Of a DNA stretch of 28,285 nucleotides, positions 14,839 to 26,169 are shown piece after piece (positions within the stretch are counted from its first letter, which is position 1; each line of letters begins with the position of its first letter). Source of the stretch: a virus (lineage: Duplodnaviria; Caudoviricetes). The stretch is taken from positions 1 through 28,285 of IMG/VR virus record IMGVR_UViG_3300020045_007939. One strand, written 5' to 3'. The translations under genes and the position numbers were made by a program. The notes under the pieces are model-generated. The model ran no database searches, was not told the DNA's origin, and was given only the letters and a program-made list of their open reading frames with translations.

Positions 14839-14891
14839 GCTATAAATGTTGGTACGTTGCGCGTCAACAATAAAGTGCGCAACATACCAAC
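14839..14891 (-). promoter_or_regulatory. PL-like promoter with two operator copies
   Basis: Minus strand TTGACG-N17-TATAGC; GTTGGTACGTTGCGC at 14848 and inverted GTTGGTATGTTGCGC at 14877-14891. Confidence 0.7.
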
Positions 14892-14900
14892 TATTTTAAA

Positions 14901-15602
14901 TCAAAGCTCGCCTTGGTATGACACGGCTACTCCGAGTATTTCAACGATGGTGTCTTCGTCGCCGTGATTTAGGGGTATCGATGTTTGTTCGGTCAATTCC
15001 CGGCTATCCGTCATAAGGCGGTCGCCGGCAAAAACCTTGACGCTATACTCATAGAAACCCGCACGCGTCCTGCGGCAGTCAACAAGTTTTCCTGGCTGCA
15101 GTTGCCACCCGTATGATTCTAACGGCACAAAAACAGCAAAGGCACCATCAGGGATGCGGTTACTGACACTGTTGCCGACCACCCGCCGCGCATATAGATT
15201 CTTGGGGCTATATCCGTTTATGGGTGCAATCAATATGTGTTCTAGCTCGGTGGAATCTCCAGACTGCTGCAATTCTCCCTCCAGCCACACGCCGCCGGCC
15301 GCCTGGCCATAAACAGGGATTGAATATGTAGGCAACTCGGCATCTGGTTGTAGTGTGGCCGGCGTCTTATTGACAACGAGCAAATCTAAACAAAGTAAAT
15401 GGGCGACGTTTGTGCGGAATGCTTGCGCATATTTCGCGGCATCTTCGGAATAGAATTCATTTTTCCCGTATTCGTGCGATTTATACGTGTCGTAATTTAT
15501 GTGCAGTGCATCAACGGCGGCCCGACGTGATTTAAATACGGCCTTTCGAGCGGCGAAAAGGCGCGCTGCTTTTTCCTGTTTAATATCAACTTTAATTTTC
15601 AT
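14901..15602 (-). CDS. CI/LexA-like repressor (HTH + S24 autopeptidase)
   Basis: N-terminal HTH; PVYGQAAGG cleavage region, VGNSV (Ser), YSVK (Lys); no clear RBS, possibly leaderless. Confidence 0.85.
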   Translation of the reverse strand: MKIKVDIKQEKAARLFAARKAVFKSRRAAVDALHINYDTYKSHEYGKNEFYSEDAAKYAQAFRTNVAHLLCLDLLVVNKTPATLQPDAELPTYSIPVYGQAAGGVWLEGELQQSGDSTELEHILIAPINGYSPKNLYARRVVGNSVSNRIPDGAFAVFVPLESYGWQLQPGKLVDCRRTRAGFYEYSVKVFAGDRLMTDSRELTEQTSIPLNHGDEDTIVEILGVAVSYQGEL

Positions 15603-15624
15603 GCCGCGCCCATAGCATAAAAAA

Positions 15625-15678
15625 TTGGTACGTTGCGCGCTTTTTTTATTTGACAAGTTGGTATGATACGCATACAAA
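15625..15678 (+). promoter_or_regulatory. PR-like promoter with two operator copies
   Basis: TTGGTACGTTGCGC (15625) and TTGGTATGATACGC (15658) flank TTGACA (15650); candidate -10 TACAAA at 17 nt. Confidence 0.65.
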
Positions 15679-15759
15679 CGTAATTGCAAGACGACGACAT
15701 ATTAAATAAGCAACCACTAAAACGGCAACATACTACAGCGCATTTGAAGGGACGAAAAA

Positions 15760-15843
15760 ATGAAAGACGAACGTAAGGCCCAGAGAAGAAGACGGAATAT
15801 GCAGCGGCCGCGTGGGCCGCCTAACCAAAGCCGCCCGGCATGA
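15760..15843 (+). CDS. Possible 27 aa arginine-rich leader peptide
   Basis: GAAGGGA RBS; MKDERKAQRRRRNMQRPRGPPNQSRPA. Confidence 0.3.
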   Translation: MKDERKAQRRRRNMQRPRGPPNQSRPA

Positions 15844-15895
15844 AAGGACCGGGCGGAACGTTCCGCAGACCTAGCTAGGGCTAGGTGTACGGAAC

Positions 15896-16138
15896 AGGCG
15901 ATGCGGCCACCCAAAACCCGAAACCCATTGGTGCCGCGCTGCGTCGTCTAACTTATTTTGCAGGGGTGGCCACTCGATGACCGAAATCCAGCGCCCTGGC
16001 GCCGCTCCTGCAAAAACTAATTTCCTGTTGTGCCATTGACAACGCGTAATCCAATGCACCACCGCGCAGCAGGAAACCACCATTGACCAGCCGGCCACGA
16101 CTGCCCCGTAACCCTTCGTGAAGCCGCTGGTTGATCAA
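15896..16138 (+). ncRNA. Stem-loop TIGR-like guide RNA array, cluster 1 (4 units)
   Basis: (G/T)GCCA at 15905, 15968, 16031, 16093 (period 62-63); each is followed by N9-CG(A/T)AAnCCn-N9-CG and enclosed in an 11-14 bp stem. Confidence 0.88.
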
Positions 16139-16164
16139 CCCCACAACGCACAAAGGAGAATAGC

Positions 16165-16770
16165 GTGACAACAACCGAAACAGTAGGCCAGACACCATCG
16201 CCGCAAGGCCGCCGCGCAACCGGCGTCAAGCCGATGTCGGCCGCCGAACTTGCGCGCTACTATTACGACCGCAATCCGGATGACCCGGAAGAGGCAATCG
16301 AGGAATATTCCGAGGCAATCGCAAAGCGTCCGGACCTGATGTATGAGGCCGCCGTTCTGTATGGCCGAAGCCTTATCAAGTCCTATATCCCGCTTCGCGA
16401 CAACAAGGAAATCCGGCAGGGCAAAGACCCGAAGCAGGGCTTGCCGCCGCGCCCGCCCGGCACCGCACACCCGGACTTCATGAAGCACCAGGCGGCGTCC
16501 ATCCTTGCTCTAGGCGAGCAAACGCGTGACCTGCTTTATGACATCACATACGGCATCGACGGCACCCGCGTGCGGCTCGGCGATTTGACCGGCGCGCAGA
16601 TTGACATCGTTGTTTCCGAAAAGCGCGGCCGCATTTCATCGGAATATCGCGACATGAAGTTCCTGCAGCTGTTGCGTGACCGAGTTCCGGACAACAAGAC
16701 GGTCGCCGAGTGCCTGGATGTTAACGCCGCGCAACAGTTGCGCGCACAGGCCGACGAACTACCCGTTTAA
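16165..16770 (+). CDS. Hypothetical protein embedded in guide array (candidate accessory factor)
   Basis: AAGGAG RBS, GTG start, 201 aa; no family recognised. Confidence 0.85.
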   Translation: MTTTETVGQTPSPQGRRATGVKPMSAAELARYYYDRNPDDPEEAIEEYSEAIAKRPDLMYEAAVLYGRSLIKSYIPLRDNKEIRQGKDPKQGLPPRPPGTAHPDFMKHQAASILALGEQTRDLLYDITYGIDGTRVRLGDLTGAQIDIVVSEKRGRISSEYRDMKFLQLLRDRVPDNKTVAECLDVNAAQQLRAQADELPV

Positions 16771-16773
16771 GAA

Positions 16774-16895
16774 TTGACGATGTGCGGCCAAAGCCTGGCC
16801 GAAAACCGTTTAACCCGCGCTGCGCATCGTCAAACTACATTGCAGGGGCGGCCACTTGAGGGGCGAAACCCACCCACTACACGCTGCTCCTGCAA
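16774..16895 (+). ncRNA. Stem-loop TIGR-like guide RNA array, cluster 2 (2 units)
   Basis: GGCCA at 16786 and 16850, same N9-loop-N9 layout and closing stems. Confidence 0.88.
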
Positions 16896-16940
16896 CCCTA
16901 ATTCAAACGCGGCCAAGTGCTGCCAAAAAAGGAGATTACC

Positions 16941-17906
16941 ATGTTTCTTGATTCAGCCGCACTCGCGCAACCGTCCGCACTCGCACAACCAACAACGCCG
17001 GCCGATATTTGTGCCGCCATCGCACGCGACCAGCGGGACTTCGGAACCGAAAAGTTCGCAACAAAGCCGGAATATTTCGAAGTGCTTATGCGGCTCCGCG
17101 ACGCGCACCGCACGCAGCAACGGTTTATCGTCGCCAGCACCAAACTCACCAATGCACAAAAAGCTGCCGTTCGGTCGGCGCTCGGCATTGAGAAGTTTGA
17201 AGACCGCGACTCCAAGTCGGCCAAGTCGGCCGAAAAAATGGTCGACAGCATGCTGAAAGCGGCGCTTGAAGACCCGATGCACAGCCTGCACGGCGCGGTT
17301 ATTTCCTATTCCTTGGCACGCGCACCGCTGGAGGCCGCAATCAGCAAATCCGACAAGCTACTGGTGAGCATCCTGAAGGAACTGCCAATCTATCAGTTTT
17401 GTCTCGAAACAAAGTTCCTCGGCGAGAAGACGCTTGCCCGCATTATAGGCGAAACATCAGGAATATCGCGCGTTACCGGAAAGCGCTACGGCATGGGCGA
17501 CTTCAGGTCGGTTTCCGCCGTATGGAAGCGCATGGGCCTGGCCGTCATTGACGGACACCGCCAGGGCAACCCAGGGAAGGGCGCGACGGCGCAAGACTGG
17601 ATTGACGAGGGCTACAACAAAAAGCGCCGGTCAGTCGCCTATGTCGGCCTGCAATACATGATTGGCAAGATGGGCAACTGGCGTCCGCAGTTCGGCGCCG
17701 ATGTCGAAAACGACGAAACGCTCAGCGAATATCAGAAGCTTTTCGCCCGCCGTGCGCGCCTTGAAATGGTGAATGCCGGGATTCCTATCGAGAATAAGAA
17801 TGGACAGGAAAGCTACAAGGCGCACCAAACGCGCCGTGCAATGCGTGTTGTAGAAAAGCACGCGCTGAAAAGGATTTACGTCGCCTATCGCGCATGCATG
17901 GGCTGA
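16941..17906 (+). CDS. IS110/Nop-domain RNA-binding protein without nuclease domain (TasA-like)
   Basis: Coiled coil, then LPIY...KFLGEKTLARIIGE, GDFRSVSAVWKRMGLAV, GYNKKRRS, RRAMRVVEK.ALKRIY match the IS110 C-terminal/Nop pattern; no DEDD RuvC or HNH seen; GGAG RBS; flanked by array units. Confidence 0.8.
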   Translation: MFLDSAALAQPSALAQPTTPADICAAIARDQRDFGTEKFATKPEYFEVLMRLRDAHRTQQRFIVASTKLTNAQKAAVRSALGIEKFEDRDSKSAKSAEKMVDSMLKAALEDPMHSLHGAVISYSLARAPLEAAISKSDKLLVSILKELPIYQFCLETKFLGEKTLARIIGETSGISRVTGKRYGMGDFRSVSAVWKRMGLAVIDGHRQGNPGKGATAQDWIDEGYNKKRRSVAYVGLQYMIGKMGNWRPQFGADVENDETLSEYQKLFARRARLEMVNAGIPIENKNGQESYKAHQTRRAMRVVEKHALKRIYVAYRACMG

Positions 17907-17913
17907 CATGAAA

Positions 17914-18034
17914 TTGCAGGTGGTGGCCAAAGGTTAACCGAAAACCTCCAAAGCCGCGCTGCTACCTGCAACACCAATTGAACTGGCGGCCAAATGCGGT
18001 TCGAAAACCATTGTATGCGCGCTGCTCGTTCAAT
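17914..18034 (+). ncRNA. Stem-loop TIGR-like guide RNA array, cluster 3 (2 units)
   Basis: GGCCA at 17925 and 17988, same layout. Confidence 0.88.
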
Positions 18035-18662: not shown

Positions 18663-19175
18663 TCAAACCATCTCCCTCAACACTACAACCCCGGCAACAT
18701 CTCCGTCGGCAGGCCAGGCAACCAAGCGGCCGGCACGCAGCAGCACGGTGTTGCCATCAACGGGCCGCATGCGCGGATTAACCCACATATGCATTCCATC
18801 AACGCGGATAGCAAAACAGCCATCAACGGCGGGCCGCGCGTATCCGCTGGCGAATTCCTCCAGTACGACGAAATCACCAGTTCCGCGACCCATTATGGGC
18901 GCACCAAGGTCGGGAAGCTTTGTTTTGCCGGTACTAATAACCGCCTCGCTTGCAAGGTCGGCCAAGTCCTCAACGGATATCCGCAGAAACTTTGCCAAGT
19001 CGGCGTACATCTGCCGGCGCGGCACAACGCCGGATTTCCACGAGTTGAAAGCCTGTTTTGACCAGCCGTAACGGCTGCCGATTTCCGCCTCGCTTAGTCC
19101 GAGCTTGATTTGTTCGTTTAGTAGCATCTGCGCCAGGCGTGTTTTCTTCACCGGCTTTTCTTTTGGACGGGCCAT
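18663..19175 (-). CDS. XRE-family repressor with degenerate S24-like C-terminus
   Basis: HTH (LSEAEIG..YGWSKQAFNSWKSG..P); FAIRVDG without catalytic Ser; GGAG RBS. Confidence 0.75.
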   Translation of the reverse strand: MARPKEKPVKKTRLAQMLLNEQIKLGLSEAEIGSRYGWSKQAFNSWKSGVVPRRQMYADLAKFLRISVEDLADLASEAVISTGKTKLPDLGAPIMGRGTGDFVVLEEFASGYARPAVDGCFAIRVDGMHMWVNPRMRPVDGNTVLLRAGRLVAWPADGDVAGVVVLREMV

Positions 19176-19594: not shown

Positions 19595-19887
19595 TTGTTT
19601 GTGAAGATTGCGGCGAAGTACACGAATACGAATATGGCGACCGTGTGCGGCTGGTGCAAAACAATATGCTGACCGGCCAGGTCATCGATGAGCAGGGATG
19701 GGGCGGAAAGTATCACGTTCGCCTAGGCGCCACAGTGTCGGCAATCTGGTTTGATGCGTGCGAGCTTGAGCCGGACCCGGATTTTGTAGACCCGGCCGCA
19801 TCAAAGACGCCGCCAGATGGTGGCGATTCCCCCGACGACAACATCATTAATCTAGCGGCGGTACGCGCCAAGGGAGGTGTGCATTGA
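19591..19887 (+). CDS. Hypothetical protein (CxxC, SH3-like)
   Basis: ATGA overlap; GDRVRL...GQVI. Confidence 0.7.
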   Translation: MIVCEDCGEVHEYEYGDRVRLVQNNMLTGQVIDEQGWGGKYHVRLGATVSAIWFDACELEPDPDFVDPAASKTPPDGGDSPDDNIINLAAVRAKGGVH

Positions 19888-20990
19888 CATACAATGTTGG
19901 TGATAAAGTGCGCGTGAACCACGGAACAAATTGGGACGGGGTTGGAACCGTTTACAAGATTGGCCGCTCTTATGTTTCTGTGAAGATGGAGACAGGCGGA
20001 TATGCCGGCAAGATCGGTGGTTTTGCTTTCAATGAGGTGGAGCCAGTATGGGCGCCGAAGGTCGGTGAGCGTGTTGCAGTTGTTAGCAACGAAGGCAACC
20101 GGATGTCTTTCGTCGGGCGCACTGGAATCGTTGTCATGGAGAAAGGCGACGGCAGATTTGTTGTCGGCGTTGACGGTGACTTTGATCGTCTGTTCTCAGC
20201 ATCGGAACTTGCGCCGGCACCGCTCCGCATCGAAGCCGGCAAGTTCTACAAGACACGTGACGGTCGCAAGGTCGGGCCGATGGTGGCAGGAAACATGCCG
20301 GACGAAGAATATGACTTTGTGGCGAGGATTGACGGTGACGACTTACGCCGAATTTTCCAAAAAGATGGAAAGCACGGCGGTAAGTACATCGAAAATGAAC
20401 CTGCAAACGACCTAATCGCCGAATGGCCGGCGGAAGCTACCAAGCCGCCCGTTGCCGCGGAAGTCGACACGCTGGCCGAAGAATACGGCCCGTCCGTTAC
20501 ATCTAAGCCGAAGTTCAAGGTCGGCGATAGGGTTGTGGCGCTTGTAGACTGGCTGGGCATCAAGAAGGGCGAAACGTACACGGTGAAGCGCCTTGAGTGT
20601 GACGGAGTGTATCTTCTCGATGTAAAAAAAGGGTACATGGATTTCGAGGAAATCGCGCTTGTCTCCTCAACCACACCACCAACAACCGCAATCGTTTGTC
20701 TTATCGAAAACGGCCAGCCGCTGCCGGCAAGCAAGCCGTTCGTGCATCCTGACGCGGCATCCGCACAGCGCGAAGCCAAGCGCATGGCGGAAGTGCACAA
20801 AGGACAGATGTTCGGCGCCTATGTGCTGGCCGGCGCGCCGGCTGTTGTAGCCAAGGTGTATGAACACGAATGGCAGCGGTTGGCGGCCGCAAACCAGAAA
20901 ATTAACGCGATTAAGGAATTGCGCCGCATTACCGGAATGCAGTTGAAACCGGCAAAAGACGCCGTCGAGTACTGGCTTAACGCCGCCTAA
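19884..20990 (+). CDS. Multidomain KOW/SH3-like repeat protein with C-terminal ribosomal bL12-like motif
   Basis: Three (K/N)VG(D/E)(K/R)V repeats; C-terminal KINAIKELRRITGMQLKPAKDAVE; GGAGG RBS with TTG start. Confidence 0.75.
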   Translation: MTYNVGDKVRVNHGTNWDGVGTVYKIGRSYVSVKMETGGYAGKIGGFAFNEVEPVWAPKVGERVAVVSNEGNRMSFVGRTGIVVMEKGDGRFVVGVDGDFDRLFSASELAPAPLRIEAGKFYKTRDGRKVGPMVAGNMPDEEYDFVARIDGDDLRRIFQKDGKHGGKYIENEPANDLIAEWPAEATKPPVAAEVDTLAEEYGPSVTSKPKFKVGDRVVALVDWLGIKKGETYTVKRLECDGVYLLDVKKGYMDFEEIALVSSTTPPTTAIVCLIENGQPLPASKPFVHPDAASAQREAKRMAEVHKGQMFGAYVLAGAPAVVAKVYEHEWQRLAAANQKINAIKELRRITGMQLKPAKDAVEYWLNAA

Positions 20991-24130: not shown

Positions 24131-24279
24131 GCAACCTAACTGGATCGACCCGCTTCAAGACGTTGTTTCTTGAGGGAACCATGTACGTCGTTCTGGAGGT
24201 TGAAACGTCTGATGGTTGGCGTCTTGCCACCCCATCAGACGTTCGACAGAAGCCGGTAATCATCGGGAACATAGCATGA
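24127..24279 (+). CDS. Hypothetical small protein (50 aa, not in ORF track)
   Basis: ATGA overlaps at both ends; MSNLTGSTRF...GWRLATPSDV. Confidence 0.6.
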   Translation: MSNLTGSTRFKTLFLEGTMYVVLEVETSDGWRLATPSDVRQKPVIIGNIA

Positions 24280-25217
24280 CACCCATCCCGCGCGCGACAA
24301 CGCCAACCCTGGCCGCCATTCAGGCGGCCATAGAAGACCACGCCGAAGATTGGGAATCCGTAGGCGTGGCGGCCGGCGATATCGGCACGGAATGCGACCG
24401 CGCAATATGGTTGGCTTTCCGCCGCGCGTCCGTTCCGGAGAAAATAGACTGGCGCAAGCGGCGGATATTCGAGCGCGGTAACATCGAGGAAGAGCGCCTG
24501 CTTGACCTGTTGCGCGCTATCGGCTGCGAAGTTTGGGGCCAGCAAGACCGCGTGCGCGCCGGCGGCGGACATCTGCGCGGCAAGATCGACGGACTAACCG
24601 TCGGGCTGCCGGAAGCGCCCGTTGCGCACCATGTCGTAGAATGCAAGTCATCCAATGCGGCCGGCTTTCGCGATATGGTCAAAAACGGCGTCAAGGAATC
24701 CAAGCCGCCGCATTACGCAACGATGCAGTTTTACATGCATCAAAAAGGCTTGGACCGCGCACTTTACATGATGTCGTGCAAGGATACCGAAGACTTGCAC
24801 ATCGAAAGGGTGCGCCTTGACATAGAGGCGGCCACACGCGCGGAAATGCGTATCGAGCGCATCATTGCGTCACCGGAGCCGCCATCGCGCTTGTGCGGCA
24901 AGCGTGACGATTTCCGCGGCAAGTTTTGCCGCCAGGCGGAAGTCTGTTGGGGCGAGGTTCTGCCGCGGTCACATTGCCGGTCTTGTCTTCACGCAACGCC
25001 GCTACTTGACGGGAACGCTGGCTGGGATTGCGCACGCTGGAATAAGCCGCTGTCGTTGTCCGAGCAGGACGCGGGCTGTGAAGCCCATTTGTACATCCCG
25101 CCAATGCTTGCCGACCGCGACCAAATTGAAGTCGATGAAGAAAACGAGACAGTCACGTATAGGCTTGCCGATGGCAGCTTGTGGGTTGATGGCGCAAAGA
25201 ATGGAGCAACTACATGA
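24276..25217 (+). CDS. Cas4-like PD-(D/E)XK exonuclease
   Basis: IGTECDRAIW, FERG, GKIDG, VECKS, QFYM, C-terminal Cys cluster. Confidence 0.88.
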   Translation: MTPIPRATTPTLAAIQAAIEDHAEDWESVGVAAGDIGTECDRAIWLAFRRASVPEKIDWRKRRIFERGNIEEERLLDLLRAIGCEVWGQQDRVRAGGGHLRGKIDGLTVGLPEAPVAHHVVECKSSNAAGFRDMVKNGVKESKPPHYATMQFYMHQKGLDRALYMMSCKDTEDLHIERVRLDIEAATRAEMRIERIIASPEPPSRLCGKRDDFRGKFCRQAEVCWGEVLPRSHCRSCLHATPLLDGNAGWDCARWNKPLSLSEQDAGCEAHLYIPPMLADRDQIEVDEENETVTYRLADGSLWVDGAKNGATT

Positions 25218-25765
25218 CACCAGACAACGACAACCGGCCGCAATGGTACGACTACGAGATTTCCGCGCGCATGCCGTTCATGCGCAAGATGGCGAACCGC
25301 ATGACAACGCCGGACAAGGCAGACGAACTTATCGGCGACACATATGTGCTCGCGTTGAGCCAGTGGAAAAAATACAATCAAGAATTTAAAATAGGTACAT
25401 GGCTTGTTGTTCTGATGCGCCACGCGAGGCGCGACACGCAACAGAAGGCTGGGCGCAAAATGCGATCCGCTCGCATGGTGTCTATTGATGATTTTGACCG
25501 CGGAGTTCCTGCCACGCAAGAAGACTATGTGGAGTTGTCGCAAACAATATCAGCTATCCAAAAAGGACGCGGTGGTGATGTGCTTTTGCGCTACGCGATG
25601 GGGGATGAGCTTAAGGAAATTGGAGACGAAACAGGGCTAAGTCGGGAACGCGTCAGGCAGATTAAACAGGCGGCGCTTTCCAAGCTTAACGCGGCGCTTG
25701 TGCCGCTTCGCGACCGGGTGGCTGACAATGACAACGAGGCCGCGCGTGAACGGGTGGAGGCGTGA
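25214..25765 (+). CDS. Sigma-70/ECF-like transcription factor
   Basis: Region 2-like ADELIGDTY...GTWL; region 4 ELKEIGDETGLSRERVRQI. Confidence 0.8.
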   Translation: MTPDNDNRPQWYDYEISARMPFMRKMANRMTTPDKADELIGDTYVLALSQWKKYNQEFKIGTWLVVLMRHARRDTQQKAGRKMRSARMVSIDDFDRGVPATQEDYVELSQTISAIQKGRGGDVLLRYAMGDELKEIGDETGLSRERVRQIKQAALSKLNAALVPLRDRVADNDNEAARERVEA

Positions 25766-26169
25766 TGCGGCTAGTGGTTACTGGCGGGAGGAACTTCACT
25801 GACACAAGGCGCATATTTTCGGCGCTTGACGAACTGCATTCCCGCCTTCACATCGCCTTGCTGATTGAGGGAGAGGCGCCAGGTCTTGACACTCGCGCTA
25901 GAGTTTGGGCCGTTAGAAACGGAGTCACAGTGCAGCCTTGCCCAGCGCCATGGGACGAAGTTGACCATCCTGATGCTGTAGTGCGCTATACGCGCGGCGG
26001 TAAGCCATACGATGCAAGAGCAGGAACGCGCCGCAACCAACAAATGATAGACGACCACAAGCCGGATTATGGTCTCGTGTTTCCGGGTGGATCTGGAACT
26101 GCTGACATGCGGTCGCGCATAGTCGCAGCCGGAATCCCATTTGAGGATGTTGAAAATGCTCCAGCTTAG
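25762..26169 (+). CDS. SLOG family (DUF2493/YspA-like) protein
   Basis: LVVTGGRNF, IEGEAPGLD, AGTRRNQQM, FPGGSGTADM. Confidence 0.85.
   Translation: MMRLVVTGGRNFTDTRRIFSALDELHSRLHIALLIEGEAPGLDTRARVWAVRNGVTVQPCPAPWDEVDHPDAVVRYTRGGKPYDARAGTRRNQQMIDDHKPDYGLVFPGGSGTADMRSRIVAAGIPFEDVENAPA

Follow-up and report, generated by a model that had tools for sequence, protein, structure and literature searches.

Between positions 15907 and 18021 of the window, by which we mean the whole 28,285-nt stretch of viral DNA analysed here, short repeated units surround a gene for a putative RNA-guided protein, and the question that this locus raises is which DNA its guides read, and whose. The earlier note had taken the region for a TIGR array with a non-cutting effector, and both halves of that claim were borne out. 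A scan of both strands of the window for the unit motif CCA-N9-CG-N4-CCN-N9-CG found eight units at 15907-18021, where 100 dinucleotide simulations give a mean of 0.53 and a maximum of 3 per window. One isolated match at 1736-1767, among the left-hand genes, is within this chance count. The eight units form sub-arrays of four (15907-16126), two (16788-16883) and two (17927-18021). Folding predicts a flanking stem for all eight (-19 to -29 kcal/mol), with 9-10 of 10 flanking pairs formed in stem-loop units, and every unit keeps its boxes, loop and stem intact. The locus is a stem-loop TIGR array with TasA (Table 1). The 201-aa ORF between the sub-arrays has no assigned family and no homolog among 133 related loci, and its slot is filled by unrelated genes in other phages. 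Neither Rfam matches nor tRNA genes were found in the window.

Table 1. Features of the TIGR-TasA locus and of the repressor-promoter region to its left (window coordinates).
Feature	Position	Strand	Details
CI-like repressor gene	14901..15689	-	phrog_4, E = 8.8e-11
Likely rightward promoter	15625..15678	+	TTGACA at 15650, weak -10 17 nt later; operator-like repeats 15625-15638, 15658-15671
tigRNA unit 1 core	15907..15938	+	Box C CCA, spacer A 15910-15918, loop, spacer B 15928-15936, box D CG, within stem; A9/B9 complementary
tigRNA unit 2	15970..16001	+	A 15973-15981, B 15991-15999; A9/B9 complementary
tigRNA unit 3	16033..16064	+	A 16036-16044, B 16054-16062; A9/B9 complementary
tigRNA unit 4	16095..16126	+	A 16098-16106, B 16116-16124; A9/B9 not complementary
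201-aa ORF between sub-arrays	16165..16770	+	
tigRNA unit 5	16788..16819	+	A 16791-16799, B 16809-16817; A9/B9 complementary; stem as in L006 unit, spacers unrelated
tigRNA unit 6	16852..16883	+	A 16855-16863, B 16873-16881; A9/B9 not complementary
tasA, 321 aa	16941..17906	+	Coiled coil + Nop domain, without nuclease domain; AGGAG at 16930
tigRNA unit 7	17927..17958	+	A 17930-17938, B 17948-17956; A9/B9 complementary
tigRNA unit 8	17990..18021	+	A 17993-18001, B 18011-18019; A9/B9 = U-G wobble

As a single sequence the tasA product matched nothing in PDB or Pfam; a profile built from 49 homologs matches TIGR-TasR (9MTY, E = 4.6e-15) and TasH (E = 7e-4). Its predicted structure (pLDDT 88) is helical and without sheet, with a disordered N-terminus, a coiled coil and a Nop domain, and TasR and TasH occupy the top ten matches when this model is used in a fold search. 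Family searches and the predicted structure revealed no RuvC or HNH nuclease domain. Because of the profile match to 9MTY, the nuclease-free combination of coiled coil and Nop domain, and the leading fold matches, the modelled product is assigned as TasA, a nuclease-less member of the Tas family. A TasA scan of metagenomes found no relatives.

The published stem-loop TIGR-TasA systems (PlTasA, BlTasA and MbTasA; PMC12045711; 10.64898/2026.09.09.750476; 10.64898/2026.08.11.744272), as described in the accessible parts of these papers, share with the window two 9-nt spacers, box C (CCA), box D (CG), a 9-nt loop and palindromic flanks, as well as a Nop-only protein that is flanked by sub-arrays and whose chain stops at the last helix. 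The dual-repeat TIGR-TasR and TasH systems (9MTY, 9W04) likewise feature a Nop domain, a coiled coil and tandem reading of both strands, but the RuvC and HNH domains are absent from the window's TasA, and stems replace the edge repeats. RNA-guided binding without cleavage is also used by mobile elements in the non-cutting CRISPR systems of phages and plasmids (type IV and V-M; accessible text of PMC12045711) and in phage TldR repressors; in the accounts available to us, both differ from the window's TasA by a single spacer and a different effector. TldR is described there as acting on host genes, whereas no host-gene evidence was found for the window's guides.

Family searches identified an integrase, a CI-like repressor, Sak4, a clamp, a Cas4-like nuclease, a sigma factor and a helicase among the window's genes, and the nearest phages are RHph_X2_25 and Rhizobium phage 16-3; the window is a 16-3-like temperate phage of Rhizobiales. 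All three share the gene order repressor - XRE - Sak4 - clamp - Cas4 - sigma - helicase, with helicases 58-59% identical. Unlike the window, phage 16-3 has no tas gene here, only a short ORF in place of the TIGR locus; RHph_X2_25, like the window, possesses a tas gene (annotated as hypothetical) with seven guide units, and among 50,697 phage records this tas gene was found in RHph_X2_25 only. This cultured phage (L001; MW960032.1) features an unannotated stem-loop TIGR-TasA locus at about 24260-25770. Relatives were located in Rhizobium, Shinella, Ochrobactrum-type Brucella and Aquamicrobium genomes. Among 400 Rhizobiaceae-family genomes there was no close prophage, the best being about 71%, and over most aligned patches the nearest relative compared has a likeness of only about 66-76%; in the TIGR region the closest likeness is to L006. 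Near relatives of the window phage are represented by fragments alone, spread over four runs from two studies, with pieces 87-98% alike in X1-X3. One such contig (run X1) has indels inside the unit 6 spacers (window 16855 and 16878), and another keeps 15790-16097 with only seven letters changed.

The TIGR locus lies directly behind the likely rightward promoter, whose position matches Pr of phage 16-3; the consensus promoter scan did not call it. We infer that transcription from this promoter would place the locus in the early lytic phase under CI control. Operator-like 14-bp repeats lie to both sides of the repressor gene: the pair at the promoter, of repeat family D3, and a second pair at 14849-14862 and 14877-14890. 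Elsewhere in the window, the motif TTGACAAATTTGTCA is repeated at 2995, 3379 and 19205 with promoter-like spacing, and occurs also in L180; these repeats are candidate operators of the XRE protein encoded at 18663-19175.

To ask what such guides read, the array must be set among its relatives. The earlier note had predicted eight 18-bp targets by joining spacer A to the reverse complement of spacer B, in line with the published rule; all eight strings agree with the units, and the region it gave, 15910-18019, runs from the first spacer A to the last spacer B. The order it assumed, A followed by the reverse complement of B, stood up to comparison across the clade, but the fixed length of 18 bp mostly did not. 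Units of the TIGR type are present in 107 of the 134 related loci, from which 671 (560 distinct) were extracted, with 550 guides near tas. Within these 550 distinct guides, position A9 is complementary to B9 in 237 (expected 26%), and in five of the window's eight. Over 545 guides this covariation reaches z = 10.2, with the next highest position pair at 2.8, and it would be expected if both spacers read one common middle base pair, which A and B would then contact from opposite strands. The two positions are not complementary in 139 of 248 close-clade guides.

Searches of DNA point to the same register. The 560 guides, searched against the 134 loci in four orders with gaps of 0-2, gave no perfect 18-mer and one-mismatch counts equal to those of controls; guide units were masked in this search, which hid one true match recovered later. 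With a middle of one base, 25 of the 248 close-clade guides have a site with 0-1 mismatch in 1.58 Mb of DNA from clade phages (12.5 +/- 2.9 for re-paired controls), and middles of 0, 2 or 3 bases, or the reverse order, remain at control level. A fresh 0.99 Mb taken alone gave 12 guides against 8.8 +/- 2.9 (p = 0.18) and one perfect match against 0.16 (p = 0.15), neither being significant. When the 248 guides were pooled against 2.65 Mb (50 phages or prophage regions), three perfect 17-mers were found where controls give 0.13 +/- 0.37 (at most 2 in 100), and perfect 18-mers numbered zero. At 0-1 mismatch the pooled 17-mers number 19, level with the control maximum of 19.4, and about half of these matches are accordingly due to chance. 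A last 0.28 Mb, which was added after one guide had matches there, contains a perfect site for another guide, in a second prophage of the very genome from which that guide comes, and two matches that are perfect over 9+9 letters and overlap by 2 bp.

A close relative, defined as a phage sharing 10-80% of 14-mers, was available for 79 of the 248 guides. Six of these match their own phage's close relative at 0-1 mismatch, with an overlap of one letter in three cases, of two in two and of none in one. The same 79 guides gave no match in each of 25 control rounds, nor in their own genomes. These data suggest that the clade's site usually spans 16-18 bp, most often 17, with halves that share one letter.

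The covariation could also arise if A9 and B9 paired with each other within the guide RNA, leaving a DNA site of 8+8 letters around a free middle base, with sister phages still as the targets. G-U combinations are more frequent than chance predicts (65 of 248, where about 50 would be expected), and in two of the four perfect 8+8 matches only A9 matches the middle base, as such a pair would allow. However, RNA-DNA pairs permit wobble just as well, copying of the site from DNA accounts for the covariation with no RNA pair at all, and the two matches with a 2-bp overlap use all 9+9 letters. We regard pairing within the RNA as improbable.

The geometry of this clade departs from the published one. 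Faure et al. (PMC12045711), in the text accessible to us, report 18-bp sites with gaps of 1-2 bp tolerated, no obvious covariation between spacers, and genuine targets that are difficult to identify, and sites of 18 bp are also those of the solved Tas structures (PMC12045711; 10.64898/2026.09.09.750476, as far as accessible). The A9/B9 covariation and the overlap of 1 bp (sometimes 2 or 0 bp) in the window's clade set it apart from the stem-loop TIGR-TasA systems as described in those portions. A word search of the available text of Guan et al. (10.64898/2026.08.11.744272) and of PMC13421893 returned neither 'overlap' nor '17-bp', and neither overlapping spacers nor the natural targets of TIGR systems are the subject of any paper listed by literature searches of openly available texts.

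The sites that relatives' guides match lie mostly within phage genes. Two guides of G017 match its sister G026 at 17/17 and 16/17, in the tape measure and major tail genes, and G017's own homologous sites differ by five and three letters within flanks that are 90% identical. In prophage G175 (17/17) and in phage 16-3 (16/17), one RHph_X2_25 guide has its site where the capsid gene ends. Other sites in sister phages fall in a primase gene, in the tas gene of G011 and in the first guide stem of G010 and G005. Guides of one phage were seen to match the first guide stem or tas gene of others at L011:4281, L006:1610 and L012:3887 (17/17, 16/17), a pattern that suggests TIGR-against-TIGR competition. 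In one case, a guide of G016, the match is to the guide's own genome, with one mismatch plus the centre. Judged from these sequences, most relatives' sites are inside genes and a minority are regulatory, and some of the one-mismatch matches named here are chance.

The regulatory minority bears on the proposal of the earlier note that guides read 18-bp sites, mainly promoters (sigma-70 -35 boxes and CtrA sites) of the host, a plasmid or a rival phage. Two unrelated guides, of G006 and G027, cover the -10-like TATAGT/TATAAA box of an element that most of the 18 listed 16-3-like phages conserve roughly 30 nt past the phrog_36072 gene, and one guide of G025 falls between TTGACA and TATGAT in AP-16-3 (one mismatch plus the centre). 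The phrog_36072-linked element looks like a lambdoid late promoter in its sequence; at L185:13015, L271:7517 and L191:11348 a TATAGT-like box is followed by GAAGGGG and then a hairpin. Guide 17-mers as a set score midway between coding and intergenic DNA, implying an intergenic share of 0.51 where 7% is intergenic; random sequence likewise scores as intergenic (-0.41), and the midway score could equally be explained by drift and self-avoidance. One 17/18 match to a close relative also fits the 18-bp register. The proposal of rival-phage targets thus held for guides of related phages, and that of promoter targets for a minority of them, two being on one late-promoter-like element; among the window's own eight guides there is neither a confirmed target nor a promoter match.

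The promoter proposal had been drawn from short words in the predicted targets: TTGACA opens target 3, and GGTTAA is present in targets 5 and 7, as stated. Had the words been named beforehand, at least one TTGACA in eight guides would have P = 0.04 and two GGTTAA P = 0.001; some 6-mer is common to two of the eight targets in 85% of simulations. Across the 550 guides near tas, TTGACA occurs twice (expected 2.5), GGTTAA four times (2.6) and TATAAT four times (1.7; p = 0.09), and because the counts of the first two are near expectation these promoter words constitute no signal of the clade. A CtrA binding site comprises two TTAA half-sites 7 bp apart (TTAA-N7-TTAA). Targets 5 and 7 have one TTAA each and lack the second half-site, and TTAA in the 550 guides is below the shuffled level (12 vs 21). 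Chance is the probable source of the promoter-like words that targets 3, 5 and 7 contain.

Searches with the eight guides themselves gave the same picture. As the earlier note had seen by eye, the window holds no full match to any target, in either order and with gaps of 0-2, the best sites outside the array having three mismatches; in the 17-bp register only four-mismatch sites are found. A self-like site with at most one amino-acid change exists for two of the eight guides (control 16% per guide). Half-sites at 15370 and 15669 were considered and rejected as within chance, since about three are expected for 16 halves and five occur outside the array. Exact 18-mers of guides 3 and 8 occur nowhere in the viral contigs (0 and 0), and the 134 related loci showed no excess in any order, so within this scope the 18-mer search that the earlier note had proposed lent it no support. 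Scans of viral contigs at 17 bp matched 19 stretches for guide 3, 14 for guide 8, 10 for guide 7, 14 for guide 5 and 6 for guide 4, and the metagenome scan with guide 1 as a 17-mer covered 119 of about 240; none of these matches (guides 1, 3, 4, 5, 7 and 8) is in a close relative, and they are at chance level. Proteins at or near the matches bear distant likenesses (L240 group 33-35%, L255 43%, L330/L355 40%, L157/L163 helicase 28-39%).

Host genomes did not support host targets either: guide 3 has no exact match there (its 18-mer at two mismatches, 0 of 5), and guide 4 is at chance level (1 of 401, against 2 for its control). At one mismatch guide 3 was found in 1 of 50 records. Of 151 Rhizobium-genus genomes, 5 hold such a one-mismatch site and the control scored 1, which favours promoters of the host; but none of the five matches is exact, two of them are homologous, and every one overlaps a stop-free frame (129-855 codons). 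An 8+8 search with the eight guides through 2.9 Mb of DNA from related phages gave no site below two mismatches. The best lead, again for guide 3, is a 16/18 match at L006:7038 that fits the 18-bp register (chance for eight guides about 0.05). This site is coding, in the ortholog of the window gene at 19884-20990 (41% identical), where one mismatch is synonymous and one terminal and TTGACA reads as Ile-Asp-Asn codons; the N-terminus of the L006 gene that holds it has no homolog but itself. Guide 4 is two mismatches from the motif encoding DCRF of a dNMP kinase in three related phages, which is chance level. On this balance we consider a promoter-directed, 18-bp reading unlikely.

The lack of any credible match in the viral, metagenome and related-phage scans might instead mean that the eight guides have decayed, or are aimed elsewhere (unrelated phages, plasmids or host genes), so that the behaviour of the clade would not apply to them. 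Against this, no unit has lost its boxes, loop or stem, and most guides of the clade likewise have no match when a close relative is absent. Moreover, the window phage's near relatives exist only as fragments, so the targets of these eight guides are not at hand. We judge decay or another aim very unlikely, and the window's guides would behave as those of the clade.

We therefore return to overlapping sites in related phages as the preferred reading. In this model, which we think likely, a non-cutting TasA dimer is guided to sites of 16-18 bp, mostly 17, in closely related rival phages and would block transcription there. Such repression would follow the precedent of other Tas proteins of this type: in the accessible part of Xu et al. 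(10.64898/2026.09.09.750476), MbTasA represses transcription, also from inside a gene, and its natural targets are stated to be undetermined.

The arrays also bear marks of how guides may change. The stems of units 5, 7 and 8 recur in L006 with 1-2 differences in 24, yet 10-13 of the 18 spacer letters differ. Among 128 stem-matched pairs across phages, some of which are copies of one phage, 110 differ by at least eight spacer letters and 16 by at most three. This pattern suggests that spacers are replaced in place within fixed stems. A broader proposal, to which we give slightly better than even credence, is that 16-3-like phages silence their own kin, with guides copied from sister phages as overlapping halves, swapped within fixed stems, and aimed at virion genes, the late promoter and the rival's TIGR array or tas gene.

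Both Zhang-lab papers, in their accessible text, describe natural TIGR targets as unknown, and the literature available to us says the same of spacer acquisition. If the kin-silencing proposal is true, it names natural targets of TIGR systems and hints at how spacers are acquired. Within this clade the published 18-bp rule misses most matches, and an overlap of 1-2 bp finds them in sister phages; among cultured phages, the RHph_X2_25 guide and phage 16-3 provide a natural test pair. Shorter sites with overlapping halves may thus be acceptable to TasA, a point of relevance to guide design and to the prediction of off-targets.
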